Source of the DNA: Candidatus Kapaibacterium sp.
GTDB lineage: Bacteria > Bacteroidota > Ignavibacteria > Kapaibacteriales > UBA4661
NCBI GenBank assembly: GCA_036847245.1
Contig: DAIUAL010000002.1
Coordinates: forward strand, 1-58,828
Length of the DNA: 58,828 nucleotides
Direction of reading: 5' to 3'
Every line of letters begins with the position of its first letter. The stretch's first letter is position 1. The translations under genes were made by a program, and so were the position numbers. The notes beneath the pieces are model-generated. The model saw nothing but the letters and a program-made list of their open reading frames with translations. It did no database searches and was not told the origin of the DNA. Shown here one piece after another: positions 2,227 through 36,192 of this stretch.

Positions 2227-3210
2227 ATGGAATTTATTGAATACTACAATCGATTACGGCAGATCGTCGAAGATGAGCTTGCAACTCTTGTTACGCAAGA
2301 ACGTCCTCGTACACTGTATGAACCGATTCGATATATTCTTTCCGGCGGCGGAAAACGTGTCCGCCCTATTCTCTCGATGATGGCATGTGAAGCTGTCGGC
2401 GGCAATCCACTTCATGCGCTTCATGCAGGGATTGCGGTTGAGGTCTTGCATAATTTCACATTAGTCCATGACGATATTATGGACACTGCCCACATGCGCA
2501 GAAATCGCCCTACAGTCCATAAAAAATGGAATGAAAATGCGGCAATTTTAGCAGGCGACTGCATGATGCCGATTGCTTATCAAATTCTGCTCAAAACACC
2601 TTCACTTAGTCATTTGCCGGAACTCATTACGGCATTCAATACGGGCGTTATCGATGTGTGTGAAGGTCAGGCATATGATTTGGAATTCGAGCAAGAGCGC
2701 GATGTCATGTTGAATGATTACCTCTTAATGATCGAAAAGAAAACAGCAAAAATGCTCGAGCTCGCCGTAGTTGCAGGAGCACTCATTGGCAATGCGCAGC
2801 AAGAGCATATTGATGCGCTTCGACGTTATGCTTTAGCCGTGGGAACAGGATTTCAAATTCAAGACGATTTACTCGATGCCACTGCCAACGAAGCAGAATT
2901 CGGTAAACGTATCGGTGGTGATATCATTGAAGGGAAGAAAACATTTTTGATTCTCCATGCAACTCAAAAAGCTACTAAACCTGACGATAAAGCTTTGTTA
3001 CAAAAGTTTTATGATGAGCAAGGTTTGCTCCCCGACGATGTTCCTTTGATGATTGATCTTTTTCATCGGCTCGATATTATCAACACCACACAATGTGAAG
3101 TTGAACGCTCTATGCACCATGCTCACGAAGCTTTGCAGGCACTCCCTGATAATGCAGGACGCAAAATGCTGGCACACTTTGCGGAAATGCTTGTACAACG
3201 CACATCATAA
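2227..3210 (+). CDS. Polyprenyl diphosphate synthase (GGPP/FPP synthase family)
   Basis: ORF 2197..3210. Both Asp-rich motifs are present (LVHDDIMD and FQIQDDLLD). The ATG at 2227 is preceded by AGGAAG. Confidence 0.88.
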   Translation: MEFIEYYNRLRQIVEDELATLVTQERPRTLYEPIRYILSGGGKRVRPILSMMACEAVGGNPLHALHAGIAVEVLHNFTLVHDDIMDTAHMRRNRPTVHKKWNENAAILAGDCMMPIAYQILLKTPSLSHLPELITAFNTGVIDVCEGQAYDLEFEQERDVMLNDYLLMIEKKTAKMLELAVVAGALIGNAQQEHIDALRRYALAVGTGFQIQDDLLDATANEAEFGKRIGGDIIEGKKTFLILHATQKATKPDDKALLQKFYDEQGLLPDDVPLMIDLFHRLDIINTTQCEVERSMHHAHEALQALPDNAGRKMLAHFAEMLVQRTS

Positions 3211-3255
3211 GAATACTGTAGTGTACATTTGGCGACAATTTCATTAAAAAGCAAA

Positions 3256-3285
3256 AAGGGCAGGAGAATCGATACTCCTGCCCTT
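3256..3285. terminator. Bidirectional intrinsic-terminator hairpin between convergent genes
   Basis: Stem GGGCAGGAG (3258-3266) pairs with CTCCTGCCC (3275-3283) around an 8-nt loop. An A-run lies on one side and a T-rich tract on the other. Confidence 0.7.
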
Positions 3286-3319
3286 CTTATTTGCGAGCAT
3301 TTTTGGTACGTATGCCAGG

Positions 3320-4708
3320 TCAGTAATACCACCCAAACACGATATTCATTTCATCTTCAGCGCGCAGTCCGAACCGTACTACTTGGTTGGTGTTATTCAA
3401 GTATGTCACCACCGATTTCAAACCTTCACCACGCCGTAAGATGAGTGGCTCTTTGAACCACACAATCGGTGGATTGAGGTAATTGGTCGAAGAGTATACA
3501 ATCTCACCATCACGTGTACCACCGACAATTTGAATAACAAAGCGTTTTTGTAATTGATGCGCATGCGAAGTCAGCCCCACAACACGCACAATTGTATCAT
3601 TGTCGTAGTTGCCACGTGTACCGACACGATACGATGTTTCAATGGTTGTTTCTTTTTGCGCAGGAAGAGAGAAAGAAATGTTATTTAACTGCAAAGGCTT
3701 GAGGACATTCTTAACTTTGTCAGGTGTTGTCGTATGGAGATTAAATACAACTTCGCCGGCAATAGAGTCTTTCAAACCATTGGAATAGTGTGAATTAAAA
3801 TCCAATAACCAATCTTTCGGAATACGCATTGCCATACCTTCAGGGAAGGAAATATCAGCATATTTGGTTTGCGCACCCATAACAAACTCACGGTCTTGCA
3901 TTTCAAGCAAACGAGCGATGTTGACTTGATAATTTTCGTTATACAAATCACGTACAACACCCGGTTGAATCAACGAACGTACTATAGATGTTCGTGGATA
4001 ACCATACAAAATAAAGTGATGACTTCGATCGCGCTGTGCCATCTCGAAACGTGTCATGTACAAATCTTCTGTGTGAGTATTTGCTTGAGCAATAAATATC
4101 TCACGATCTTTCTGTGCAGGTACACTAAAACGATTGACGCGGAACTGCAATCCCGAAGCAGGTTGTGGCAGAGTAATCAATTCATTCTGACTGCGTGTAT
4201 CATCGAGCAATGTTGGATCGGCAACAGCACCATCCAGAGGCGCACCGGCAACAATCCACTGTCGAATAAACTCTAACTGCCCGCGTGTCAACGTTCGTGA
4301 CCCCAAGGGCATCAAATCACCATAGCCGTCGGATTTATGTAAATTTAAACTATCAAGTTTGATGTAGAGAAAACTCTTGTTCAAATCACTTGGTTTCACA
4401 CGTAAAAGCTTGTCTTTAAGTGCATTAGCGTTCGATGGATTTGCATTTACAAGATTGCGATAAGCAACTGCAGGCGACAAATCCAGACCACCTCCACTAT
4501 TCGCTGTCGCATGGCAACCACTTGTTGCACAGTTAGGTGTTAAGATTCTCTCTTGCAACAGAGCAAAGGAAGAATTTCCTGTTGGAACGAGTGGCGTTGT
4601 ACCCGGCATTTCATCGGCAATTTTGAAATTATTGCACGACATCAATGCGACCGTACCACTCAGCGTACACAACAAAAAAACCGAACGAAAAAAGGGGCGC
4701 ATAGACAT
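3320..4708 (-). CDS. Lipoprotein with a PHM/DBH-like copper monooxygenase domain and an N-terminal PSCyt-like CX4CH module
   Basis: Signal peptide plus lipobox (VALMSC). Ligand pattern: HH (SHHFILYGY), H (NSHYSNG), HxH (SHAHQL) and M (EDEMNIVFGWYY). N-terminal part: NCATSGCH...GGGLDL...FIRQWIVAGAP. Confidence 0.6.
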   Translation of the reverse strand: MSMRPFFRSVFLLCTLSGTVALMSCNNFKIADEMPGTTPLVPTGNSSFALLQERILTPNCATSGCHATANSGGGLDLSPAVAYRNLVNANPSNANALKDKLLRVKPSDLNKSFLYIKLDSLNLHKSDGYGDLMPLGSRTLTRGQLEFIRQWIVAGAPLDGAVADPTLLDDTRSQNELITLPQPASGLQFRVNRFSVPAQKDREIFIAQANTHTEDLYMTRFEMAQRDRSHHFILYGYPRTSIVRSLIQPGVVRDLYNENYQVNIARLLEMQDREFVMGAQTKYADISFPEGMAMRIPKDWLLDFNSHYSNGLKDSIAGEVVFNLHTTTPDKVKNVLKPLQLNNISFSLPAQKETTIETSYRVGTRGNYDNDTIVRVVGLTSHAHQLQKRFVIQIVGGTRDGEIVYSSTNYLNPPIVWFKEPLILRRGEGLKSVVTYLNNTNQVVRFGLRAEDEMNIVFGWYY

Positions 4709-4825
4709 ACTTGCAGAAGAAAGTAAAAATAGGAGCTTTCAATTCAAGGCAATTTAACGAATTAGATCTGTACTCACGTAGGACGTATAAACACACATAA
4801 GGTTTAAAAAGTTTTTATGCCCCAC

Positions 4826-5521
4826 CTACTCATACGCTAATCGTTCAATGGCATCCGATTCGATAATGTCATGCCCTTGCTTGTCTGACAATGCATAGCG
4901 CATCATTCCCATAGCAATGGTTCGAGCATGGATAACACGATACTTGCGCATGGGTCCAATCAACAATGGAGCAAGCATCTTTGTAAAAACAATACCCAAA
5001 TATTCACCGGGACGCGATTCTGTACGATTACCATCGATAAAGGACGGACGAAACGCACACGAATTGGCAATACCGCTTGCCTGCACATCGCGTTCCATTT
5101 CACCTTTGGTACGACTGTAGAACACTGATGATTGTACATGTGCTCCAAGTGCTGACACAACAAGAAACCTCTCACCGCCATTCTGCGCCGATAAGCGAGC
5201 TGCATTGACCACATAGTCATAATCCACTTTACGAAATGCCTCTTGCGAACCGGCAGTGCGAATTGTCGTACCTAAGGTGCAATACACATCATGCGCACGA
5301 AAGACGGAGAGATTATCCCCCATAGCATCTAACGAACCGATACTATGCTGAATAATTTTTCTGCTCGGAATATCATCAGGTATTTTGATGGATTTGCGCA
5401 CGAGCAAGTGAACAGACTCATAACTTGATTCTTCTGCAAGCAAGCGCAGGCAATGCCCACCGACCAATCCTGATGCCCCAATGAGCAAGGCAGTACGTGT
5501 TACTTTATGTGATTGTGCCAT
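4826..5521 (-). CDS. NAD(P)H-binding Rossmann-fold oxidoreductase (HTATIP2/NmrA-like)
   Basis: N-terminal ALLIGASGLVGGHCLRLL glycine-rich dinucleotide-binding motif. The length (231 aa) is typical of the family. Confidence 0.7.
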   Translation of the reverse strand: MAQSHKVTRTALLIGASGLVGGHCLRLLAEESSYESVHLLVRKSIKIPDDIPSRKIIQHSIGSLDAMGDNLSVFRAHDVYCTLGTTIRTAGSQEAFRKVDYDYVVNAARLSAQNGGERFLVVSALGAHVQSSVFYSRTKGEMERDVQASGIANSCAFRPSFIDGNRTESRPGEYLGIVFTKMLAPLLIGPMRKYRVIHARTIAMGMMRYALSDKQGHDIIESDAIERLAYE

Positions 5522-5620
5522 AGGAACTTAAGGTTGATAACAATAGCGATGAACACAATGAATAAACATGAAAACAATGGTACAATCAGGCATAGTATCC
5601 AAAGAATACATGATCTTATG

Positions 5621-7987
5621 TTATTCCTCGAAACGTTCGACAGTCTTGATACCTTGTATTTTTTTCAATTTGCTGAAGAGCTTATCCAAATGCTCTTTGT
5701 CCTTGACATACACCGTTACCACACCCTCGAAATGATTATCATACGAATCAATATTCACGCTACGGATATTTGTATTGTTGAGTGAGGAAATCATCGTAGT
5801 GATATCGCTGACTAACCCCGTGCGATCATCACCCGACAAACGAATCCCTGCCATAAACTGCTCTTTGAAATCCCCTGCCCACGCAACTTCCATCAGGCGT
5901 GGATGTGCATTTTCTAAAAAACCTTTAACATTCTTGCATTGCTTACGGTGAATTTTAATACCATTACCAATCGTAACAATACCGACTATGTCATCGCCGG
6001 GTACAGGGTTACAACATCGTGCGTAAGAATACATCACCGGTGTTTTACCACCTTCTTCGACGATACGAATACTGTTTTGCTGTTCGGTACGTGCGCGGTT
6101 GACAAATTTCTCGAAATGCTTTGATTCTATTTTATCAGGTTCGGGTTCGGGAGCAGGTGGTTCCTTAGGTTTGAGATATTTATCGATTGCCGCCTTACCT
6201 GCGACATCGACATCGAGCAAACCTGTTGCAAGGGCAAAAAGAAAATCTCCCTTGTGTTGAAATCGCAAACTATGTGCAAAACGGTCAAGTTCGTCTTCAT
6301 TGATGTGTAAATCAATGCGCTTGACTTTACGATCCCAAATTTCTCGCCCTTCTAATACCTTCGCACGGCGATCTTCATTCAAAAACTTTCGAATTGCCGA
6401 CTTGGCTTTGTGTGTTACGACAAAACGCTCCCAATCTTTACTTGGCGATTGATTTTTCGAGGTTAAAATTTCTACCTGATCGCCGCGCTGCAAGACATAG
6501 TTGAGCGGAACGATTTTCCCATTGACTTTTGCACCGATGGTGTGATACCCAACTCGACTGTGTATGTCAAAAGCAAAATCAATCGGTGTCGCATCTTTTG
6601 GAAGAATACGCAAATCACCCTTAGGCGTAAAGACATAAATCTCTTCCTGAAAAAGATTCAACTTGAAACTCTCGATAAGCTGCTCCGGTGCTTCATCGCC
6701 GGCACTATCGAAAATATCGCGCACCCAATTTGCCCATTCTTCGAGCTCTCGATCCTCAACATAGGTATTGGTTACATGCTCCTTATACCGAAAGTGTGCA
6801 GCAAGACCCAACTCGGAAATCTCGTGCATTTTGCGAGTACGAATTTGCACCTCAACTTTCTTACCATCAGGACCAATGACCGTAGTATGAAGCGATTGAT
6901 AACCATTTTTTTTCGGCACAGAAATATAGTTTTTGAATCGCTCGGGCACCGGTGTATAGATATCCGAAATAATACCATACGCCACAAAGCAATCATTGAC
7001 ATTCTCCGTATCAAGGATAATTCGCACGGCAAAAAGATCGTACACATCATCGAGCGATTTACCACGCGACACCATCTTATTGTAAATCGAATACATGTGC
7101 TTGGCACGACTTGAAATCTCAAATCGAAATCCTTCTTTCACCAAACGCTCCTGTATCGGCTTAGCAAAATCTTCTACATAAGTGTTGCGTTCATCACGCT
7201 TGAGATTTAGTGCTTTTTTAATTTCATCGAATGCTTCACGATTCAAATATTTGAATGCCAAATCTTCAAGTTCCCATTTGATATTCCCAAAACCCAAACG
7301 ATGGGCAAACGGCGAGTAAATATCAAGTGTTTCGCGAGCAATACGCTTTTGCTTTTCGGGTGTCATGTGCTGAAGTGTACGCATATTGTGCAAGCGATCA
7401 GCAAACTTGACAAGCATCACACGCACATCGCTTACCATCGAGAGCAGAAGTTTACGATAGCTCGCGGCTTGACGAATTTCGCGTGTTTCAAAAGCACCGG
7501 AAATTTTTGTGACTCCATCAACGATAGCCGCAACATCACTGCCGAAAAGATCCCCTATATCGTGCAGAGTATATTCAGTGTCTTCTGCTACATCGTGCAA
7601 AAGTGCGGCAATGACCGATGCTTCATCAAGAGGCGTTTCGCGTACCAGCAATGTTGCCACAGCAAGCGGATGCGTATAATATGGTTCGCCCGAAGCACGT
7701 AAATCCTTTCCATGCGCCCGTACGCAGAAATACACGGCACGCCGAATCCGCTCTTCGTCGAAACGCTTCAAACCCATACGGCATGCTGCAATCAGATCTG
7801 CCAATAGTGCTTCGACTTTTGGATCAACTTCATCAGTAAAGGAATCTTGTGGTATGGTATCGGATGAGATTGTACCATGATCAACAGAAGTGATACACGA
7901 CACATCTGGTTCGCCAACGGCAATCGGCGTAGGTGTTTGCTCCTGCGTTGGCATGTGTTCGTCTTTAGATATTTCTTGGAGTGCCAT
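5621..7987 (-). CDS. relA: Bifunctional (p)ppGpp synthetase/hydrolase, RelA/SpoT family
   Basis: HD hydrolase motifs (YYTHPLAVA, LLHDVAEDT), a synthetase core (YQSLHTTV), and TGS and ACT-like C-terminal regions. The track ORF extends to 8074; the ATG at 7987 (MALQEISKD) is the likelier start. Confidence 0.9.
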   Translation of the reverse strand: MALQEISKDEHMPTQEQTPTPIAVGEPDVSCITSVDHGTISSDTIPQDSFTDEVDPKVEALLADLIAACRMGLKRFDEERIRRAVYFCVRAHGKDLRASGEPYYTHPLAVATLLVRETPLDEASVIAALLHDVAEDTEYTLHDIGDLFGSDVAAIVDGVTKISGAFETREIRQAASYRKLLLSMVSDVRVMLVKFADRLHNMRTLQHMTPEKQKRIARETLDIYSPFAHRLGFGNIKWELEDLAFKYLNREAFDEIKKALNLKRDERNTYVEDFAKPIQERLVKEGFRFEISSRAKHMYSIYNKMVSRGKSLDDVYDLFAVRIILDTENVNDCFVAYGIISDIYTPVPERFKNYISVPKKNGYQSLHTTVIGPDGKKVEVQIRTRKMHEISELGLAAHFRYKEHVTNTYVEDRELEEWANWVRDIFDSAGDEAPEQLIESFKLNLFQEEIYVFTPKGDLRILPKDATPIDFAFDIHSRVGYHTIGAKVNGKIVPLNYVLQRGDQVEILTSKNQSPSKDWERFVVTHKAKSAIRKFLNEDRRAKVLEGREIWDRKVKRIDLHINEDELDRFAHSLRFQHKGDFLFALATGLLDVDVAGKAAIDKYLKPKEPPAPEPEPDKIESKHFEKFVNRARTEQQNSIRIVEEGGKTPVMYSYARCCNPVPGDDIVGIVTIGNGIKIHRKQCKNVKGFLENAHPRLMEVAWAGDFKEQFMAGIRLSGDDRTGLVSDITTMISSLNNTNIRSVNIDSYDNHFEGVVTVYVKDKEHLDKLFSKLKKIQGIKTVERFEE

Positions 7988-25008: not shown

Positions 25009-25261
25009 AGAACAAGCGAAAAGTGAACAAAAAAGTGAAAAGAAAATACATACTTCCACACTATAGAAATATACTTTATTGTGTCAATAATATGTGAAAG
25101 ATTCAAGCCATAAAATGCCGAAATGGTATATTGCTGTTCTGTATCAGCGTCATGGTCGTTGCTTATCAAAGAGTAAAGATTCTCTTGGACAACGACTCAA
25201 GTAGTAAAATACATCTTTGTTTCACACTTTTTCTTTCATTAACAACGGAGTGATAGTAGAT

Positions 25262-26062
25262 ATGACAGCAGTAAAGTTTAATGCTTCGGTCAATCGTATG
25301 CTCGGATACATGTGTATTGCGCTATGCGTATGCATGATCAGTTCGACAACAGTAGTAGCACAAAAAAAATCCGACAAACCTGCACCTAAAACAAGTGGCA
25401 AAGCGGCAACCGCTAATCCCAATGCCCTCATCACATTCAAAGATTCGCTCAGCTATACCATTGGCATGGATGTAGCACGCAGTATTCGCAGTGGCAATTT
25501 GGATTTAGATATTGATAAATTCGTTGCCGGCTTACGCGCAATGATGGCATATGATTCTACTAAAAGAGGCAGTATTAAACCTCTTCTTACCGAAGATCAA
25601 GCTCGTGCATGCCTGCAAGCATTTCAAATTCAACGCATGAAAGAACAGTCAGCTATTAACGAACAAAAAGTCAAAGAAGCAAAAGTCGTTGCTGATTCCT
25701 TTATGCTTGCCAACAAGCAAAAACCGGGTGTTGTAACACTACCCAGCGGTGTACAGTATCTTTCGCTCAAGAGCGGATCAGGCAAGTCGCCGGCTGACAC
25801 CAGCGAAGTAACGGTGCACTATGTCGGTAAATTAATCGATGGTACAGTTTTTGACTCTTCGGTCGAACGCAATCAACCTGCAACATTCCGCTTGAATGGT
25901 TTGATTGATGCATGGAAAGAAGCACTCCCTAAAATGAAAGTCGGCGACAAATGGGTTCTGTATGTACCACCCGAAAAAGTGTATAAAGAAATGGGCGCAC
26001 CACCAAAAATTGGTCCGAATGCTGTTCTCATTTTTGAATTAGAACTGCTTGATGTTAAGTAA
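25262..26062 (+). CDS. FKBP-type peptidyl-prolyl cis-trans isomerase (FkpA/Mip-like), secreted
   Basis: Signal peptide, a helical dimerisation region, and the C-terminal FKBP core VTVHYVGKLIDGTVFDSS...VLIFELELLDV. Confidence 0.88.
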   Translation: MTAVKFNASVNRMLGYMCIALCVCMISSTTVVAQKKSDKPAPKTSGKAATANPNALITFKDSLSYTIGMDVARSIRSGNLDLDIDKFVAGLRAMMAYDSTKRGSIKPLLTEDQARACLQAFQIQRMKEQSAINEQKVKEAKVVADSFMLANKQKPGVVTLPSGVQYLSLKSGSGKSPADTSEVTVHYVGKLIDGTVFDSSVERNQPATFRLNGLIDAWKEALPKMKVGDKWVLYVPPEKVYKEMGAPPKIGPNAVLIFELELLDVK

Positions 26063-26090
26063 CTTTTTTTTGATCGTTTTTTCTTATCGA

Positions 26091-26831
26091 ATGAACTCTT
26101 TTCTCAAATCTCTCGCTGTAGTCTGTGTTGCCCTTGGTTTGGTAGCAGTAACAGCATGTAACTACAATCAAACATCGAATGTTGCTCTCATAAGTTCGGT
26201 TGATAGTGCAAGCTATGCTATCGGTATTGACATCGGTAAAAATATCCAGCGCAGTGATGCCGATATCGACCTGAACATCTTGCTTGCCGGCATGAAAGAT
26301 GGTCTTGCTATCGGTCAGGCACTTGCCAAAGGTGATACCACGAAAAAAGGATTGCAGTCCGAAGCGCAGATGCAACAAGTCATGATGAATTTCCAAGTTG
26401 CTATTCAACAAAAACAAATGCAAAAAGCTCAAAAACAAGGTGAAGACAACAAACAGCTTGGTCAGGCATTTCTTGCGAAATACAAACAAGAGCAAGGTGT
26501 TACAGCACTGCCGAATGGCATCTTGTACAAAGTCATCAAATCCGGTTCAGGTGCAAGCCCCAACGAAAACAGTACCGTTACCGTTCATTACGAAGGTAAA
26601 TTGGTTGATGGTAAAATCTTCGATAGCTCTTTCCAACGTAATGAGCCTGCGACTTTTCCGCTCGGCAATATGATCCCAGGCTGGAAATCAGTCCTCCCGA
26701 AAATGAAAGTTGGCGATACATGGGAATTCGTTTTACCTGATAGTTTGGGATATGGCGCGCAAGGTGCGGGTGGTGCTATTGGACCATATGCCGTACTTAT
26801 CTTCAAAGTCGAACTGAAAGATGTAAAGTAA
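26091..26831 (+). CDS. FKBP-type peptidyl-prolyl isomerase lipoprotein (tandem paralog)
   Basis: Lipobox (VAVTACN) and FKBP core VTVHYEGKLVDGKIFDSS...VLIFKVELKDV. Confidence 0.88.
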   Translation: MNSFLKSLAVVCVALGLVAVTACNYNQTSNVALISSVDSASYAIGIDIGKNIQRSDADIDLNILLAGMKDGLAIGQALAKGDTTKKGLQSEAQMQQVMMNFQVAIQQKQMQKAQKQGEDNKQLGQAFLAKYKQEQGVTALPNGILYKVIKSGSGASPNENSTVTVHYEGKLVDGKIFDSSFQRNEPATFPLGNMIPGWKSVLPKMKVGDTWEFVLPDSLGYGAQGAGGAIGPYAVLIFKVELKDVK

Positions 26832-27860: not shown

Positions 27861-28247
27861 TTATGCAGCAAGTTGAAGAAATTGTTGCGGTGTTTGATTT
27901 GCTTGTGCAAGCGAGGCAACAGCAATCTGCTGTTGTACCTGCGAGCGTGATAGTTGCAGTGTCTGCTCGGCATCGCTTGCTGATTGCAAGGACTGCTGAT
28001 TACTCAGTTCTTGCACGGCATTTTGTGACTGTTGTGCTACGCGTGCTTCGTTGGAGATTGCACCGGTGTCAGGCACATTCTGTGAAGTCCGTGCCTGCTC
28101 TCCTTGCTGTGTTCGGCGCGTACTTTGTGTTTGTTGCGTCTGCTCAACACGCTGGACTTCCTGCGTACGCTCTGCTTCTTGTGTACGCTGAGCTTGTTGT
28201 ACTTGCTGAACGGGCTGTTGCAACTTGCTGATGTCGGTAGTATTCAT
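27861..28247 (-). CDS. Gln-rich low-complexity protein with a flagellin/YjfB-like C-terminal helix (hypothetical)
   Basis: 128 aa with degenerate RTQE/QTQQ repeats. C-terminus: LSRSQVQQQIAVASLAQANQTPQQFLQLAA. Terminator orientation supports the minus strand. Confidence 0.55.
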   Translation of the reverse strand: MNTTDISKLQQPVQQVQQAQRTQEAERTQEVQRVEQTQQTQSTRRTQQGEQARTSQNVPDTGAISNEARVAQQSQNAVQELSNQQSLQSASDAEQTLQLSRSQVQQQIAVASLAQANQTPQQFLQLAA

Positions 28248-28332: not shown

Positions 28333-28376
28333 AAAAAATGTATGCTTGTTATGCTCAAGCATTGACTACATTTTTT
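28333..28376 (-). terminator. Rho-independent terminator closing the blaI-blaR1-like operon
   Basis: Nested inverted repeats AAAAAATGTA/TACATTTTTT and TGCTTG/CAAGCA immediately after the stop at 28378. A T-run follows on the minus strand. Confidence 0.75.
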
Positions 28377-28377
28377 G

Positions 28378-29073
28378 CTATCGCAAGATCGATTTCGTTA
28401 TCACCATTTCGACAAGAAAATACTGCTCCAGTCGAAATTTTGGTCCGAATTCCTCAGGCGGAACATCAGACTGTGCCACATTGCAATACGAACCACTACC
28501 ATCGGGATATATCGTCGGTGGAATAATAGCGCACAGATAGAACGGCTTACCAATCGGCACTGCCAATGTTGTATTTGCCCCAAGGAAATCTTTCAAAGCA
28601 TAATCTTCCTTGATAGGCAATAAAGCATACGTAAGCTTTCGACTACTGAACTGTGGTGTACTTATCTGCATTCGTAGCTTATCATCTTGTATTTTACAAA
28701 TAAATCGAAAGGATGCCGAATCCTTTTTGATCATAAAAAAATCATCAATGGTGCCATCTATCAATGTATCTGTTTTGACAAGTTTGCCTCGCTTGAATTC
28801 TTTGACAAAGAGCTGGTAAAATGTGCCTTTCAAACTTGTACTCTTGAAATGTACCAGCTGAATAGCAAGATTCTCAAAGCGCATGAGGTGATTGAGCGAT
28901 TCATTACCTGTGCTATAGTCTAAACGAAGTATTGCCACTGAATCAGAACCTTGCGCATGTGTCACACATGGCAACAAAAAGAACAGAGAGAATGCCACAG
29001 TTATGTGCGCGATAATATTTATGTATGGTATCATCATGAAAAAGAATTGATGAGAAAAAATGACCGCGAACAA
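28378..29073 (-). CDS. Hypothetical exported protein, third gene of the blaI-blaR1-like operon
   Basis: Hydrophobic N-terminus ending ...LLPCVTHAQG. No recognisable family. It starts 33 bp downstream of the M56 gene; alternative starts lie at 29037/29034. Confidence 0.55.
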   Translation of the reverse strand: MFAVIFSHQFFFMMIPYINIIAHITVAFSLFFLLPCVTHAQGSDSVAILRLDYSTGNESLNHLMRFENLAIQLVHFKSTSLKGTFYQLFVKEFKRGKLVKTDTLIDGTIDDFFMIKKDSASFRFICKIQDDKLRMQISTPQFSSRKLTYALLPIKEDYALKDFLGANTTLAVPIGKPFYLCAIIPPTIYPDGSGSYCNVAQSDVPPEEFGPKFRLEQYFLVEMVITKSILR

Positions 29074-29106: not shown

Positions 29107-31863
29107 TTACCAATCCGTCAGTAACTCAGTAATTTTTTTCGTGCTGAGTCCTTCCTCTTTGAGTTTTTTCAACTTTTTGATCGAGATTCCAAGCACGCCG
29201 ATTTCGCTGATTTCATCGGAGGTAAAACCCATTCCTTTTGCTTCGCGCACCCATTCGATACTCACACCTCGCACGCCAATTTCTGCAATATCATCAGAGT
29301 TCAAGCCAAGCTTGCGGAGTTCAGAAGCATAGTCGGGACGAATACCACGTACGGCAAGTTCCATTGTTTCATCAGTCGAGAATCCTTGTTCCTTATATGC
29401 TTTGGCAGTTTCGGGCTTGATACCTCGCACACCATAATCCATCGCGGCATGCACATCAAAACCTTGTGCTTGATATACTTTTGCACGTTCGGGATCAATA
29501 CCACGCACGGCAAGTTCCATTGCATCATGATCAGAGAATCCTGCTGAACGGAATTTTTTGGCTGTTTCAGGTTTGATACCGCGAACGGCATACTCGAGCA
29601 TTTCACGATATGCAAAGCCCGCCGCTTTGTACTCTTTCGCTTTTTCAGGACTGATGCCACGAACCGCGATTTCCATTGCTTCATCGTCCGGGACACCGGC
29701 ATCGCGGAGTTTTTTAGCAGTTTCGGGTTTGATACCGCGCACGGCATATTCCATAGCATCATCGGTAGCAAAGCCAAGCTCTTTGTATGCTTGGGCTGTT
29801 TTCGGAGTAATGCCACGTACGCCAAGTTCGTACACCTCGTGCCCTTTAAAACCTGCGGCTTTGAGTTCTTTGGCGGTTGTAGGCTTGATTCCTCGTACAC
29901 CCAATTCCTTTGCTTCGTCTGTAGAAAATCCGGCATCTTTATATTCCTTCACCGTAGCAGGACGCAAACCACGTACACCAAATTCTACAGCTTCATTGCG
30001 AGTGAATCCCTGCGACATAAAGGACGACGCTACGGCAGGCGAAACACCAACCACACCAAAAGATTGAATATCATCGACTTTCATACCCTGTGCAAGTGCA
30101 TCTTTGACATACGATGGCTTCACACCGGTAAGAACAAAACCCACAACATGATTGAGCGACAAATTCATTCCTTTGAATGCTTCGAACTTACTGAGTTTTG
30201 TTCCTGCCAAGGCAACATCATAGAGTAACATATCCGTAACGGGACTATATCCCATTGCTTTAAGCTCGGCAATAGCTTTAGTATCAGCTGTAAAGCGGTA
30301 TGTTCCTTTGGCTTTACCACGGGCATTGACTGTTCCCTTCATACTGAGTGTACCGAGTTCAAAGGGCAGAGTGCAAGAAATTTCACCTTCTTTTGCAAAA
30401 GATTGCGCAGATAGACCTCGAAATTTATCAAGAGAGTAACGGCTGTATATGTGATAACCGATGCCATCATTTGGTTCATTTAAGCGCAAGGTAACGCGGT
30501 CATCATCACGCAGTTCTGCCGCCCATTCGCCTACAGGCTCTGCGTTGGGATCAAGCCGGTCTTTGGTACGATTGAACACGACATGGTCACCATAGATCAT
30601 GGTATCATCATCACGTTCAACAGAATCTTTTTTGGTTTTGCGTTTGTCACGTTCAGCGGTCAGACCAATGGGCTCAGCGATGGTTTCAACAACAGCATCT
30701 TTGACAACTGTTGATGTTTTAGCAACAAGTTCCTGCACTTCTGTGTTGGTGCCGAGAACAAGCATAAGAGCAATCGTCAAGGCAAGTGCTGCCGAGAAAT
30801 AACCGCTGTGCAAGCGGGGCGTGTCGACAGGTGATTGCAATAAGCGTTGGATACGATGAAGAAGCATATTCTTTCCTCCTTTGCCGGGGAAAAATTGTGA
30901 AGACGAGAATGGATTGATGAGAGAAGAATACTGAACAAGCGCGGAGAGTGCCGTAGCAATAGCACGAGAATCTCCCGTTACACTGAGCGCAATATCATCG
31001 CAACAGTGTTCACGCTCTTGGTTGATAATTCCTGACAACCACCACACCGCGGGATGATAAAACAGGATACTTTCGACAATAGACTGCACGATATTCACAG
31101 CAAAATCACGCCGAAGAATATGAGCCATTTCGTGAGCAAGAATTGCTTCGACTTGTTGCGGTGTCAGCCCCGCAATCATGCCCACCGGAAAAAGAATCAT
31201 CGGCTTGAGAATACCAATCGTCATTGGCACGCGAGCAAGCGTAGATTCTACTACCTCAACTGTTGTGGAGAGTGCGATTTTTTCGGCAATCGATTGTACC
31301 GTCCGTTGCCAGACTTCGGGCAGAGGTTGTACACCCTCTGTACGCAGTCGCCGCACATACCATGTGCTTAAAAAAAGTTTTCCCAAAAAGACCACGACTC
31401 CGCAGAACCATAGTGCTACCATGAAGTCGATGTGTTCATTGATAAAAGTTTGCCATGTTCCTTGAAGTGCTTGTAAGCGTTGGAGCAATGTGGGTAGAGA
31501 GCTTGCTGTAACACTCTGCGTCATGGTTGCATTACCTTGCGACAAGGATGATGATATCGACTGCGAAGAAAGAGACTCTTGTGAGACACTGCTCATGACA
31601 GAAGCACTGCGAATACTCACAAGTGGCTGTGCTGAAGAATATTCAATGAATGCCGTTCCACACACAATACAAAAAAGCAAAGCCAAACCACCAAGTGCTA
31701 CACGATAGACATATTCTGACTCGCGCTCATCGCCACGAGCACGCAAGCGATGAAATACAACACCGGCAACCAAGGCGATCAAGGCACCCTGCCACAAAGA
31801 ATGAATCAATGCCCACCCAATAGCATATAACAGTGTCGAGCCGGTCGAGGAAAATGCAAGCAT
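29107..31863 (-). CDS. M56-family (BlaR1/MecR1-like) membrane metalloprotease signal transducer with a C-terminal 26-aa repeat array
   Basis: N-terminal TM segments, the zinc motif ILAHEMAHILRRD and the conserved FYHPAVWW, then a final TM segment. After a ~210-aa unassigned region, the last ~347 residues (about 572-918) form 13 tandem repeats. Confidence 0.85.
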   Translation of the reverse strand: MLAFSSTGSTLLYAIGWALIHSLWQGALIALVAGVVFHRLRARGDERESEYVYRVALGGLALLFCIVCGTAFIEYSSAQPLVSIRSASVMSSVSQESLSSQSISSSLSQGNATMTQSVTASSLPTLLQRLQALQGTWQTFINEHIDFMVALWFCGVVVFLGKLFLSTWYVRRLRTEGVQPLPEVWQRTVQSIAEKIALSTTVEVVESTLARVPMTIGILKPMILFPVGMIAGLTPQQVEAILAHEMAHILRRDFAVNIVQSIVESILFYHPAVWWLSGIINQEREHCCDDIALSVTGDSRAIATALSALVQYSSLINPFSSSQFFPGKGGKNMLLHRIQRLLQSPVDTPRLHSGYFSAALALTIALMLVLGTNTEVQELVAKTSTVVKDAVVETIAEPIGLTAERDKRKTKKDSVERDDDTMIYGDHVVFNRTKDRLDPNAEPVGEWAAELRDDDRVTLRLNEPNDGIGYHIYSRYSLDKFRGLSAQSFAKEGEISCTLPFELGTLSMKGTVNARGKAKGTYRFTADTKAIAELKAMGYSPVTDMLLYDVALAGTKLSKFEAFKGMNLSLNHVVGFVLTGVKPSYVKDALAQGMKVDDIQSFGVVGVSPAVASSFMSQGFTRNEAVEFGVRGLRPATVKEYKDAGFSTDEAKELGVRGIKPTTAKELKAAGFKGHEVYELGVRGITPKTAQAYKELGFATDDAMEYAVRGIKPETAKKLRDAGVPDDEAMEIAVRGISPEKAKEYKAAGFAYREMLEYAVRGIKPETAKKFRSAGFSDHDAMELAVRGIDPERAKVYQAQGFDVHAAMDYGVRGIKPETAKAYKEQGFSTDETMELAVRGIRPDYASELRKLGLNSDDIAEIGVRGVSIEWVREAKGMGFTSDEISEIGVLGISIKKLKKLKEEGLSTKKITELLTDW
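29110..30150 (-). repeat. Coding tandem repeat, 13 units of 78 bp (26 aa)
   Basis: Units run from HVVGFVLTGVKPSY... to IGVLGISIKKLKKLKEEGLSTKKITE. Core consensus: GVRGIxPxxAKxxKxxGFxxxExxE. Confidence 0.85.
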
Positions 31864-31933: not shown

Positions 31934-32374
31934 CTATTTGCTTTTCAAGAGCTTTTGAATTTCTTCCATTTCTTCTTTCGAGGGTGAGTAATTTCCAAGC
32001 GCCTGCTTGACAAGTTGCATGGGCGAGCCATGAAAAACAGCATCCATGAATTTTCCTAAGAGTGCTTTTTGCGTGTCTTCACGGGAGACAGTTGCAGAGT
32101 ACAAATGCGTTTTGTTGCTCTCATCGCGTCGAACTAATCCTTTTTCTGCCATGATCTGCATGATCTTGAGTGTGGTGGTATAACCGATTTCTCCCTCAAG
32201 CCCTTTTTGCACTTCTTTCGCATTGAGCATATCATTGACATCGCGAACGGATGCCGGTTGATGCTCCCACAAAATTTGCAGAATGGCTAATTCAGCATCA
32301 GTGGGCTTTACGGATGATGTTGAAAAAAAAGAACGCATCGTTTTTTTGACTGAAGATTTTGATGCAGATGCCAT
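31934..32374 (-). CDS. blaI: BlaI/MecI/CopY family transcriptional repressor
   Basis: Winged-helix core (AELAILQILWEHQPASVRDV...GYTTTLKIMQIMAEKGLVRR). No C-terminal Cys cluster, so it is not CopY-type. The track ORF opens with TTG at 32389; the first ATG is at 32374. Confidence 0.85.
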   Translation of the reverse strand: MASASKSSVKKTMRSFFSTSSVKPTDAELAILQILWEHQPASVRDVNDMLNAKEVQKGLEGEIGYTTTLKIMQIMAEKGLVRRDESNKTHLYSATVSREDTQKALLGKFMDAVFHGSPMQLVKQALGNYSPSKEEMEEIQKLLKSK

Positions 32375-32434: not shown

Positions 32435-32450
32435 TACGAAAAATTTCGTA
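32435..32450 (-). promoter_or_regulatory. Operator-like dyad 1: TACGAA-AAAT-TTCGTA
   Basis: Perfect 6-bp inverted arms. The dyad centre lies about 68 bp upstream of the blaI ATG (32374). Confidence 0.45.
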
Positions 32451-32506: not shown

Positions 32507-32522
32507 TACGAATTGTTTCGTA
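32507..32522 (-). promoter_or_regulatory. Operator-like dyad 2: TACGAA-TTGT-TTCGTA
   Basis: Same arms and spacing as dyad 1. Confidence 0.4.
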
Positions 32523-32530
32523 GATAAACT

Positions 32531-32546
32531 TACGAAGTATTTCGTA
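32531..32546 (-). promoter_or_regulatory. Operator-like dyad 3: TACGAA-GTAT-TTCGTA
   Basis: Same arms and spacing, 24 bp centre-to-centre from dyad 2. Dyads 1 and 3 share the flank TTTCGTAGA-A-GTTTCAAAAAA. Confidence 0.4.
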
Positions 32547-32596: not shown

Positions 32597-32633
32597 AAAA
32601 AAATCCCGCATAAGCATACAGCTGTGCGGGATT
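32597..32633 (-). terminator. Rho-independent terminator for the HMA lipoprotein gene
   Basis: Stem AATCCCGCA/TGCGGGATT with a 14-nt loop, followed by T7 on the minus strand. Confidence 0.75.
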
Positions 32634-32670
32634 ATGTTGTGTTGATTGTGCGGGATTATGTTGTGTTGAT
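32623..32670. repeat. Perfect 24-bp tandem duplication (TGTGCGGGATTATGTTGTGTTGAT x2)
   Basis: Copies at 32623-32646 and 32647-32670 are identical. Copy 1 supplies the right arm of the terminator stem. Confidence 0.95.
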
Positions 32671-32704: not shown

Positions 32705-33079
32705 TTAATGTGTCTTTGCACCTGCTTCACGATACTTACAGCATTTCGGAAGTCCTGCATAGGTTGCATCCTGTGCTTTGGTTGTTTCTATATCATGACC
32801 AACCGATACGACTTTATCTTGAATAGCTTTGAGGTTTGTTTTGCTGTCATCAAATTTCACCGCAAGCATTTTTGTATTTTTATCCCATGTTGCCGATTGA
32901 ACGCCCTGCACTTCTTTGACGGCTTTTTCAATGCGTTTTTTGCACGAACCGCAATTGCCTGATACTTTGATTGTTTCTGCCTTATCCGCAGAAAATGCTG
33001 AAGCAGCAGTGCAACCCGCGATGATAGCACTAACAACCACAAGGCGTTGCCATGAACGGCGCAAAAAGAATGTTTTCAT
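32705..33079 (-). CDS. Heavy-metal-associated (HMA) domain lipoprotein
   Basis: Lipobox (IIAGC), an HMA fold with a CxxC motif (SGNCGSCKKRIEKAV), and a C-terminal CC pair. Confidence 0.8.
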   Translation of the reverse strand: MKTFFLRRSWQRLVVVSAIIAGCTAASAFSADKAETIKVSGNCGSCKKRIEKAVKEVQGVQSATWDKNTKMLAVKFDDSKTNLKAIQDKVVSVGHDIETTKAQDATYAGLPKCCKYREAGAKTH

Positions 33080-33921: not shown

Positions 33922-36192
33922 ATGAAAATCTCACAACGTGCATCAACTGGCAATCTTTCCTATTTCTACACGGAAGAAAAGCCCCCCGGAATGCTCAGTG
34001 CCCACATTATGTATCCTGCATACATTGTGTTGGCTCTTACACTCGTGGCAAGTATTGGCGTTGGTATTCTCCTTCTTCAAAATGTCGAAGAAGTACGCCG
34101 AAGCGATTTTGAACGAAATACTATCAATGTATCGCAGCGTCTTCGGAGTACTGTACAACGCTACACGCAGGTGTCGCAAACAATGATGGGTTTGTATGAA
34201 TCGTATGGCATCGTTATTCGCGATATTTTCGAGGTTGCTGCAACACCATCTGTACGTGTCTTTCCCTCAATGCTGTCGATTAGCTTTATCAGTTTTGTAC
34301 CCATTAGTGGTGTTGAGGATTTTGTTTACAATGCACGACGCGAACGGTACTTAGATTATCGCTTGGATGTCACCCCACAAGCGCGACAACGACTCTACAT
34401 GATGCCGATTTTTTATGTTGTACCATTCCCGGCGAAACAATCCTTAAGCGGTTTAGATGTTGCCAATATCCCTGAAATGCAACAAGCCATTCTGACAGCA
34501 CGTGACAGCAATTGCACGGTGCTCTCACAAACATTTCGCTTGGGTCAAGATTCAACTGTGATGGCACTTCTTGCACCGGTGTACAAACGAACGTTTCGTG
34601 CCGTCCCTGAAGCACAAGCAAAAGAAGACATTACTGCCGCCGACTACTATGTTCAAGCTGACACGACTACTTTGCAAGCACGTATCAAAAACTTCGCCGG
34701 TGTCATGTGCATCGAGATTCAACTGTCTCAATTTGTACGTGAGGCATTCGGCGAATTAGAACATGCCGATCCGGGCATTATTGTTCGCTGTATCGACAAA
34801 ACAGCCAACAATGCTGTTCTTTATCAATCTGCAAGTCTTTCGGCTCAATCGAACCCCAATTTCACCCCCGAATTTCAAACGCGTACACGAGTACAGCTCG
34901 GCAATCACACAATCGAACTCGAGTTTATTGCTACTCCGGAATTTGGCAGCAGTGTTGAAAAAAATCTACCCTATATCACCGCAGGTGTGAGTGTTTTAGC
35001 AAGTCTTTCATTGTTTGCTTTTTTAGTTTCATTGCTTTCAGGGCGTGCACGAGCACAATTTTTGGCAGAGCGTATTACACGCTCACAACGGCGCATTTTT
35101 GACTCTTCGCAGGATATGATCTGCGTAACAAGTTTGAATTATTCTATTCGCAGTGTAAATCCGGGTATGGTTGAAACTCTTGGCTATACTCCCGATGAGC
35201 TTATTGGTGCATCGTTGTGGCAGTTTTTTGATCAGAATGCCGATGCTTTAAAACTTTTCAAAGGTGCCGACGGCGAACGTATTCATTACGAAACACCAAT
35301 GCACAAAAAAGATGGCTCGGTGATATGGGTCAGCTGGAATAGCACGGTCAGCGATGATGCTATGTACAGTATCGGGCGCGATATTACCATCGAAAAGCAA
35401 TACGAACAGCAACTCCGACTTCGTACCAAACAAGTAGAGTTGGCACAACAGATTACGATTGAATCAGCACATAGCAAAAACATCTTGATGTCGAACTTGA
35501 GCTTTTATGCGCGTACGGCTTTATCAAGTATTTTGGGTTATGTACAGATTATTTCGATGCGAGCATACGATTCAAAAGACGAAGAAGAAACCCTCATCAA
35601 CACCATTCAGCGTGACTCTGACTTGCTCATGAGCCGTATGCATGACATTGTTACAATTGCCGAACGCGACACGATTGCCTCTATCACTCGCGGTACAATG
35701 ATGCGCATCCCAATTCTCGAATCTTTTGCTGATTTTGAGAATGAACTTGCTCAACGACTCCCTAACAAAGGCATTACATTCGCCAAACAGTTTGATGCTG
35801 AAGTAGCCGACTACATCCTGAATGTTGATCGCGAAATGTTTTACAATGCCTTGACTTTTGCCATTGATAGTTTGACACAAGGTTCTCAATTTTCGTTTGT
35901 GCAAACAGGCATTACACTCAATACACACGAAGCCGTAGCAGAGTGCGAATTTCTTTTCCCCATATCGCCGGGGATTCATGATACGCTCAAACGCTTCCGC
36001 TCATACTCCATGTTTCAATTGATCTCTGCACTAGATCAAGACAACGACGATATTATGTTCCGCTTGGCACAAGCACACTCACTCTTCAAAATGCTCGGCG
36101 CAAATATCATGGTTGATGTTGTTGATGAAGAAACAGCGGTCATGTTTCTCTCGATTTCTGTACGCAAAATGATTCGTCTACCTCAGCAATGA
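33922..36192 (+). CDS. CHASE-PAS sensor protein with a degenerate histidine-kinase core
   Basis: TM, then a ~300-aa CHASE-like periplasmic domain (MPIFYVVPFPAKQSLSGLDV...AILTARDS...ALLAPVY), a second TM and a PAS domain. The H-box reads SNLSFYARTALSSILGY (Phe where His is expected), and the N/G boxes are not recognisable. Confidence 0.75.
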   Translation: MKISQRASTGNLSYFYTEEKPPGMLSAHIMYPAYIVLALTLVASIGVGILLLQNVEEVRRSDFERNTINVSQRLRSTVQRYTQVSQTMMGLYESYGIVIRDIFEVAATPSVRVFPSMLSISFISFVPISGVEDFVYNARRERYLDYRLDVTPQARQRLYMMPIFYVVPFPAKQSLSGLDVANIPEMQQAILTARDSNCTVLSQTFRLGQDSTVMALLAPVYKRTFRAVPEAQAKEDITAADYYVQADTTTLQARIKNFAGVMCIEIQLSQFVREAFGELEHADPGIIVRCIDKTANNAVLYQSASLSAQSNPNFTPEFQTRTRVQLGNHTIELEFIATPEFGSSVEKNLPYITAGVSVLASLSLFAFLVSLLSGRARAQFLAERITRSQRRIFDSSQDMICVTSLNYSIRSVNPGMVETLGYTPDELIGASLWQFFDQNADALKLFKGADGERIHYETPMHKKDGSVIWVSWNSTVSDDAMYSIGRDITIEKQYEQQLRLRTKQVELAQQITIESAHSKNILMSNLSFYARTALSSILGYVQIISMRAYDSKDEEETLINTIQRDSDLLMSRMHDIVTIAERDTIASITRGTMMRIPILESFADFENELAQRLPNKGITFAKQFDAEVADYILNVDREMFYNALTFAIDSLTQGSQFSFVQTGITLNTHEAVAECEFLFPISPGIHDTLKRFRSYSMFQLISALDQDNDDIMFRLAQAHSLFKMLGANIMVDVVDEETAVMFLSISVRKMIRLPQQ

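Follow-up and report, generated by a model that had tools for sequence, protein, structure and literature searches.

The closest described systems are the BlaR1 and MecR1 transducers of Staphylococcus aureus and Bacillus licheniformis (PDB 8exp/8exs). Their gluzincin signature, stabilising residues, N-out/C-out topology and extracellular C-terminal sensor have been described in the structure of BlaR1 (PMC9834060). In a 2026 survey of ~15,000 M56 proteins, proteins in which no C-terminal domain can be identified form the largest architectural class, and only ~6% carry a transpeptidase domain; most M56 proteins lack a β-lactam-binding domain, and 96% lie near a BlaI homologue (PMC13492132). Non-canonical BlaIR systems, such as CenIR of C. 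difficile, BlaIR of M. tuberculosis and M. abscessus, and PvmSR of P. aeruginosa, likewise pair an M56 protein with a BlaI-like repressor; they have no β-lactam-binding domain and are presumed to sense other envelope cues (PMC13492132; bioRxiv 10.64898/2026.08.03.742534). Here, we describe an M56 transducer gene encoded by a 58,828-nucleotide (nt) stretch from Candidatus Kapaibacterium sp. (assembly GCA_036847245.1, contig DAIUAL010000002.1, positions 1 to 58,828; the whole stretch is hereafter called the window). The gene (29107–31863, minus strand) comprises 918 codons and a stop, and its product is identical to P0157 (NCBI GCA_002405405.1). Together with the repressor gene directly upstream, it probably represents the fused version of a proteolytic signalling system of the BlaI/BlaR type, widespread yet unnamed, whose envelope cue is something other than β-lactams.

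The N-terminal part of the protein (residues 1–376; 30736–31863, minus strand) consists of four predicted transmembrane (TM) segments, a re-entrant segment and a gluzincin protease domain predicted to face the cytoplasm, as in BlaR1/MecR1. Peptidase_M56 (PF05569) matches residues 87–295 with an E value of 9e-24 and 84.6 bits against a Pfam cut-off of 31. The zinc-binding and catalytic motif HEMAH (H244–H248; 31120–31134, minus strand) aligns with H201-E-X-X-H205 of BlaR1, and E285-H-C-C-D289 (30997–31011, minus strand), the gluzincin EXXXD motif with the third zinc ligand, aligns with E242XXXD246 at an offset of 43. The stabilising Asp is also present, since D253, five residues past the second His, aligns with BlaR1 D210. 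The N-terminal ~380 residues are alignable to residues 105–293 of S. aureus BlaR1 (PDB 8exs/8exp), at low identity (E about 2e-4). Judged by these motifs, the protease half is a complete BlaR1-like M56 gluzincin core (HEXXH, Asp and EXXXD) in a predicted four-TM scaffold.

The sensor is a different matter. No match to the transpeptidase family PF00905 was found in the 918-residue protein even at E ≤ 1, the K[TS]G motif is absent from its C-terminal part, and with the NCBIfam model blaR1_generic the score, 74 bits, stays below the cut-off of 400 and comes only from the protease region. No linked gene for a β-lactamase or for a penicillin-binding protein of low affinity is present among the neighbours, which encode a heavy-metal-associated (HMA) protein, an AhpC-TSA protein, a CHASE-PAS protein, a 219-residue open reading frame (ORF) and a pirin. 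An earlier reading of this DNA, made by a model without database searches (the sequence-only reading), had proposed an M56/BlaR1-type transducer without a penicillin-binding sensor, and this proposal is borne out. In contrast to BlaR1/MecR1, the window system has neither the class-D-β-lactamase-like domain nor a nearby β-lactamase or PBP2a gene; its putative sensor region is built of a β domain and a helical solenoid. Hence, by its domain content, the protein is not a bona fide β-lactam-sensing BlaR1/MecR1.

Hydropathy places the TM segments at residues 14–37, 55–73, 141–165 and 354–376, with a re-entrant-like segment at 215–233. The loops that follow TM1 (38–54) and TM3 are K/R-rich, and the segment past TM4 is acidic. 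Because the four hydrophobic segments and the K/R-rich cytoplasmic loops match the topology of BlaR1, residues 377–918 are predicted to lie outside the cytoplasmic membrane in the same N-out/C-out arrangement, with the sensor past the last TM segment. The occurrence of both the β domain and the repeat array in partner proteins with signal peptides (see below) argues independently for this placement, which is also where the sequence-only reading had put the repeats.

The gene directly upstream (31934–32374, minus strand) encodes a winged-helix repressor of the BlaI/MecI family. The product has 146 residues from the ATG at 32374 (the ORF list starts it at a TTG, 32389) and matches Penicillinase_R (PF03965) with an E value of 2.5e-22. 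Within 315 base pairs (bp) upstream of the gene, there are three perfect 16-bp TACGAA-N4-TTCGTA palindromes, which are candidate operators. Palindrome 1 (TACGAAGTATTTCGTA, 32531–32546) lies between a −35-like TTGAAA and a −10-like element; palindrome 2 (TACGAATTGTTTCGTA, 32507–32522) overlaps a TATAAA −10-like element; and palindrome 3 (TACGAAAAATTTCGTA, 32435–32450), the nearest to the blaI-like start, is preceded by a −35-like TTGAAA and followed by GATAAT. The three make up all matches with at most one mismatch in the 58.8-kb window, against a chance expectation of 0.11, and three occurred in 0 of 100 shuffles. Of 83 fetched loci, 54 have the same palindrome a short distance upstream of their blaI homologue; among the phyla represented are Acidobacteriota, Bacteroidota, Planctomycetota, Myxococcota and Gemmatimonadota. 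In the window and in two of the fetched loci (L001 and L002), one palindrome lies between TTG(A/C)AA and TATAAT-like elements and the next overlaps the TATAAT-like element. This predicted layout is the one that promoter occlusion requires, and it resembles BlaR1/MecR1, in which an adjoining BlaI-family repressor gene has palindromic TAC...GTA-type operators over its own promoter. The Kapaibacterium locus L002 contains one further perfect TACGAA-N4-TTCGTA (4859–4874), ~4.3 kb upstream of its blaI. This site lies just ahead of a gene for a ~442-residue secreted protein with no Pfam family and an aromatic-rich C-terminal end, a possible regulon member.

The extracytoplasmic part was modelled with AlphaFold2 from an 11-sequence alignment, and a four-unit fragment of the array was modelled separately. 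The mean predicted local distance difference test score (pLDDT) is 83 overall and above 90 over the array. Residues 377–443 (30535–30735, minus strand) form an acidic linker past TM4 that is of low confidence (residues 376–435 in the model; pLDDT below 50 for model residues 1–60) and probably disordered. Residues 444–526 (30286–30534, minus strand) are modelled as a six-strand β domain with conserved W447, G504, G510, G520 and F524, recognised by a local hidden Markov model (HMM) with an E value of 1.4e-28. Residues 527–918 (29110–30285, minus strand) are modelled as an α-solenoid of 29 helices (at 528–916), i.e., ~14.5 units of 26 residues with a conserved C-terminal ELLTDW tail. The helices have nine residues each and are joined by four-residue loops, with two helices per unit; thus, each 26-residue unit would be a helical hairpin and the array a uniform α-solenoid. 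The four-unit fragment gives an identical helix pattern. The sequence-only reading had missed the conserved β domain ahead of the array, as well as the relation to secreted partners described below, and the modelled helices begin at ~527, slightly before residue 572, where that reading had begun the repeats.

At the sequence level, positions 29110–30150 correspond exactly to residues 572–918. The count of 13 units from residue 572 in the sequence-only reading was accurate: 12 canonical 26-residue units, each with [GA]-V-[RVL]-G-[IVL], occupy residues 601–912, two to three degenerate units precede them (at 523/549/575), and the six-residue tail ELLTDW ends the array. The unit consensus is E-h-[GA]-V-R-G-I-x-P-E-T-A-K-x-[YL]-K-x-A-G-F-s-x-D-E-A-M. 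Identity at a lag of 26 residues is 0.38, against a maximum of 0.13 across all lags in 2000 shuffles. A weaker signal at a lag of 13 (0.18) shows that each unit is built of two related halves.

Foldseek searches of the PDB with the whole extracytoplasmic model or the four-unit fragment found no match at E ≤ 1e-3, a negative that is not strong because Foldseek performs weakly on monotonous helical repeats. The top matches of the fragment are designed repeats and toroids with E values of 0.009–0.3; mTERF and TALE follow at E > 1. Designed helical repeats and α/α toroids (PDB 5cwb, 8cwy, 8v2d and 4yxx) are also the best matches of the array profile among PDB sequences, with E values down to 1e-33. 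They share with the array a short, idealised helix-loop-helix-loop repeat, but since they are artificial, the resemblance reflects convergent geometry and composition rather than ancestry. For the β domain, a lipocalin-like fold was considered and rejected, as the best Foldseek matches, lipocalins at E 0.3–1, are not significant. The check by structure prediction and fold search that the sequence-only reading had proposed yielded a confident β domain and solenoid, but no significant match to a natural fold. Whereas the C-terminal regions of the non-canonical BlaIR proteins are short, largely disordered or absent, the window protein has ~480 confidently folded residues in the model; unlike theirs, its C-terminal region is part of an extensive, conserved family with secreted partner proteins among its members.

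The extent of this family was revealed by an exhaustive HMMER search with residues 512–918 against 50%-identity cluster representatives, which returned 1150 representatives at E ≤ 1e-3 and 242 at E ≤ 1e-10. Most of the top matches are M56 proteins with HExxH near residue 200–250 and a C-terminal array of period 28–29; a minority, including the clade of the window protein, have period 26. Of the 120 full-length M56 homologues nearest to the window protein, 89 carry the repeat, in 84 cases with a period of 29 and in 5 with a period of 26. The window array matches the arrays of these 89 at E values of 1e-11 to 1e-241, and the repeat is the commonest C-terminal module among the 120. Among the fetched loci, 33 of the 82 with an identifiable M56 ORF contain it. 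In all, hundreds of protein clusters, mostly with the 29-residue form, are spread across Acidobacteriota, Myxococcota, Gemmatimonadota, Bacteroidota and Ignavibacteriota. Among genomes, the nearest relatives are metagenome-assembled genomes of Ignavibacteria and Candidatus Kapaibacterium, and the 29-residue form is found in Blastocatellia, Thermoanaerobaculia, Gemmatimonadota, Saprospiraceae and cultured Archangium. The rarity implied by the sequence-only reading is therefore not upheld; a word-indexed search with the repeat alone had given 1 match and a two-sequence profile 6, low numbers that stem from a limit of 8000 candidates, against the 1150 representatives of the exhaustive search.

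Array-to-array phmmer comparisons (E 1e-15 to 1e-31) show that the window array is homologous to those of the M56 family with 28/29-residue repeats (Archangium, Blastocatellia and Saprospiraceae), which also shares with the window system the M56 head, the operator and the β domain, either fused or on a partner. The two forms differ in detail: the clade of the window (Ignavibacteria/Kapaibacterium-like) has a 26-residue unit, the 28/29-residue form has two to three extra residues in the loop after G-[FY], and R replaces the H of the x-H-G-V motif in the window clade. As aligned, the 26-residue form is a lineage variant of the 28/29-residue repeat. We define the module here as two-helix units of the pattern x-[RH]-G-[VI]-x-P-x-h...G-[FY], arranged in tandem and located C-terminal to an M56 head or, alternatively, to a signal peptide and β domain; the window protein, as translated, carries such units behind its M56 head. 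No Pfam or NCBIfam model covers the repeat, the β domain or the partner proteins, so the repeat belongs to no curated family, as the sequence-only reading had supposed, and our literature search found no published description of the β domain and repeat module. Database labels for the relatives are merely "M56 family metallopeptidase" or "beta-lactamase regulating signal transducer". PF27122 was rejected as a name for the repeat because it is IniB, matched faintly by some relatives.

Other repeats of related appearance were seen in the course of these searches. The M56 proteins P0013 (~519–700) and P0076 (541–800) have other 26-residue variants without the glycine of the first half (VKPDLLKAYKDAGFDLEEYKSYIHSR). 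In P0076, the units are nearly identical (lag-26 identity of 0.87), which suggests a recent expansion. In the Ser/Thr kinases P0015 (453–620), P0014, P0017, P0020 and P0049, one of which also carries a UvrD helicase, a tandem repeat of 13 residues, W-K-x-A-G-F-x-P-x-E-A-K-x, separates the kinase domain from a C-terminal TM segment. This repeat resembles a half-unit of the 26-residue repeat, and its only Pfam match is a sub-threshold one to "Decapeptide" (DotG). The period-13 kinase matches were rejected as family members, being a different, simpler repeat in a cytoplasmic context.

The β domain and the array also occur away from the M56 head. In a Blastocatellia operon (L003), blaI is followed by an M56 gene whose product has a Pro/Ala-rich linker and an array but no β domain, and then by two partner genes, whose products each have a hydrophobic signal or anchor at the N-terminus, a β domain and an array. 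The β-domain HMM was run on all ORFs of the fetched loci, and those M56-repeat loci were counted in which the sequence downstream exceeds 1.3 kb. A partner gene was found in none of the seven loci whose M56 protein has an internal β domain (the window and its near relative, plus loci from Ignavibacteria, Kapaibacterium, Gemmatimonadota and Thermoanaerobaculia). In 21 of the 23 loci without an M56 β domain, the M56 gene is followed on its own strand by one or two partner genes. These genes start −3 to 132 nt past the M56 stop codon, and their products begin with a typical signal peptide, directly after which comes the β domain. The association is significant (Fisher p = 1.8e-5; p = 2e-4 when the two loci of the window itself are left out), and this complementary pattern of fused and split forms shows that β domain and array act jointly with the M56 head. 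In the window protein, by its gene structure, the parts of this M56 and partner system are fused into a single chain. One instance of the module lies outside such an operon. At 2990–7047 of locus L085, a standalone protein with a signal, a β domain and repeats (P0003) is encoded with stop/start overlap with the gene of a PadR-regulated, duplicated MacB_PCD/FtsX permease; this coupling implies that the module is not restricted to BlaI/M56 systems.

In the mechanism that we propose by analogy with BlaR1, the β domain and the solenoid would together act as the periplasmic sensor, with the β domain as the likelier ligand-binding head and the solenoid as a rigid scaffold for protein-protein docking or extension. 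The solenoid would dock to the array of the partner in split systems and, in the window protein, to the second protomer of a BlaR1-like dimer. An envelope signal would alter the sensor assembly, and, as in BlaR1, this change would reach the cytoplasmic protease through TM4. Cleavage of the BlaI-like repressor by the protease would then derepress the operon and possibly regulon members elsewhere in the genome. Several observations weigh against this envelope-sensing system. No convincing operator sites for further regulon members were found within the window, where the sole confident ones belong to the operon itself. The downstream genes are not conserved even in a relative with 89% identity. 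No structure matches the β domain significantly, which leaves its role in ligand binding conjectural; the topology is predicted; and the ligand, the regulon members and the protease activity are putative. Furthermore, the lengths of the M56 and partner arrays (means of 8.4 and 7.4 units, respectively) do not co-vary (r = 0.08), and a strict side-by-side pairing of the two arrays is thus unsupported.

A more specific form of the proposal is tentative: the β domain and the solenoid may together be a periplasmic co-receptor of a new kind. The secreted solenoid protein of split systems would attach, array to array, to the solenoid of the M56 protein, and its ligand-dependent binding, release or degradation would trigger repressor cleavage; the window protein would be a tethered, self-contained version. 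If so, the system would represent a three-component, solenoid-docking input to a BlaR-type protease that has nothing to do with antibiotics, and it may be the commonest type of BlaR-like sensor in soil Acidobacteriota and Myxococcota.

Alternatively, the solenoid could be a passive, periplasm-spanning spacer or ruler that places its conserved C-terminal tail at the peptidoglycan or the outer membrane, as has been proposed for the proline-rich linkers of TonB or the repeat region of DotG; sensing would then be mechanical or mediated by an outer-membrane partner rather than by the β domain. The copy number, which ranges from ~5 to ~19 units across relatives, the Pro/Ala-rich linker ahead of the array in acidobacterial and myxobacterial members, and the tail (E/D)-[IL]-L-T-D, which is kept within the 26-residue clade, are consistent with a spacer. 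TonB_C is the second commonest C-terminal domain of M56 proteins (PMC13492132), so trans-periplasmic reach recurs in this family. In addition, the best natural match of the array profile among PDB sequences is the decapeptide region of DotG/IcmE of the type IV secretion system (Dot/Icm) in Legionella (E 2.6e-22), a periplasmic repeat with A-G-F-[ST]-x-x-E-L-K, like the second half of the window unit. However, the DotG repeat has a period of 10 residues, as opposed to 13/26 here, PF25296 scores 38.2 bits against a gathering threshold of 45, and the match may reflect shared composition. DotG was also rejected as a structural template because its repeat region is unresolved in the cryo-EM models, which cover only residues 791–824 and ~857–1046 (PMC8486379). 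The strong conservation of the unit, including the charged surface positions R5, K13, K16 and E24, exceeds what a spacer needs, the array is also present in soluble secreted partners without a membrane anchor, and no conserved gene for an outer-membrane partner lies nearby. A passive spacer is thus unlikely.

ComEA is a periplasmic DNA receptor of the helix-hairpin-helix (HhH) type. By analogy, the array could be a true tandem HhH domain that binds the nucleic-acid backbone, in which case the transducer would sense extracellular or periplasmic DNA through a ComEA-like module fused to M56. The sequence-only reading had regarded the units as HhH-like. The local resemblance is real: V-R-G-I-x-P-E-T-A-K resembles a hairpin and second helix (G-I-G-P-K-T-A), and HhH and (HhH)2 arrays (HHH_5, Topoisomerase V, ComEA) likewise have a two-helix unit of ~26 residues in which P-x-x-A comes after a G-hydrophobic turn. 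Tandem HhH arrays exist in Topoisomerase V, as tandem units do here. Summed sub-threshold scores were obtained from HHH_5 (37.5 bits on the isolated array, with HHH_5 scoring in relatives too), DNA_pol_lambd_f, SAM_BAF and the RadA N-terminus, and the array profile weakly matches Topoisomerase V (E 0.095) and the Rad51 N-terminal domain (E 1) among PDB sequences; the weakly matched mTERF and TALE folds point the same way. Nevertheless, these profile signals are diffuse, and no single stretch passes any HhH model. In Foldseek, Topoisomerase V ranks 23rd for the fragment (E 6.1, TM-score 0.36), behind designed helical repeats, and is not matched by the whole model; no further HhH protein was found. 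Position 6 of the unit, the first hairpin glycine, is invariant, but position 8, the site of the second glycine, is S/K/R/T in 12 of 12 units. Moreover, the uniform four-residue loops indicate a continuous solenoid rather than a five-helix (HhH)2 unit. The array has a net charge of 0 (56 K/R against 56 D/E), and the mean across 172 M56 relatives is −0.95 per 26 residues, reaching −4.8. Non-specific DNA binding by the array is thus unlikely, kinship with the HhH family is weakly supported and at best distant, and DNA sensing by a tandem HhH array is highly improbable.

An artefactual array, arising from repeat collapse or expansion or from a chimeric ORF in a metagenome-assembled genome, for which tandem repeats are a known hazard, can be dismissed, because the 78-bp units share a mean DNA identity of only 50% (maximum 77%), the longest exact internal repeat is 16 nt, the architecture is common to homologues from several phyla, and an independent assembly from another sample (P0007, Logan SRR30952577) has the same number of units. 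Indeed, the 392-residue array of P0007 aligns without gaps at 91% identity (89% overall), and its three indels relative to the window protein are all outside the array. Tandem Repeats Finder detects only 2.4 diverged copies in the array.

An ORF of 219–231 residues with a hydrophobic N-terminus and no family (28378–29073, minus strand) begins 34–70 nt past the M56 gene, is possibly co-transcribed with it and is followed by a terminator-like hairpin (28342–28362). It was rejected as the output of the system, as it is absent from the closest relative (L084), which has a DUF5916 gene in its position. Just upstream of the blaI-like gene, a 124-residue lipoprotein-like HMA protein with CxxC is encoded at 32705–33079 (minus strand). 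This linkage is kept in the closest relative (L084) but not in L002. A hairpin and T-run terminator at ~32600–32640 follows the HMA gene, which places it on a separate transcript. CopY-like metal sensing, suggested by this neighbour, was rejected for that reason and because the repressor has no Cys motif. Farther away, a 128-residue Gln-rich ORF with QQxQ and TQE repeats (27861–28247, minus strand) has no family match; it contains an 18-bp tandem repeat of 2.9 copies (28149–28200) and is absent from the locus of the 89%-identical relative. At 33922–36192 (plus strand), a 756-residue membrane protein has CHASE and PAS domains and a histidine-kinase-like C-terminal region, with no output domain in the Pfam list. 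Two tandem, slightly overlapping paralogues of FKBP-type peptidyl-prolyl isomerases (FKBP_N and FKBP_C) with signal-peptide-like N-termini are encoded at 25217–26831 (plus strand).

Within the M56 proteins with no identifiable C-terminal domain, one large, well-folded putative sensor module is now defined, spanning at least five phyla. The family is large enough for new Pfam/InterPro models, and the label "beta-lactamase regulating signal transducer" on its members should be corrected. Because its operator, TACGAA-N4-TTCGTA, and its secreted partner are both conserved, the system is directly testable in cultured Archangium and provides an experimentally tractable entry into what most "BlaR" proteins sense.

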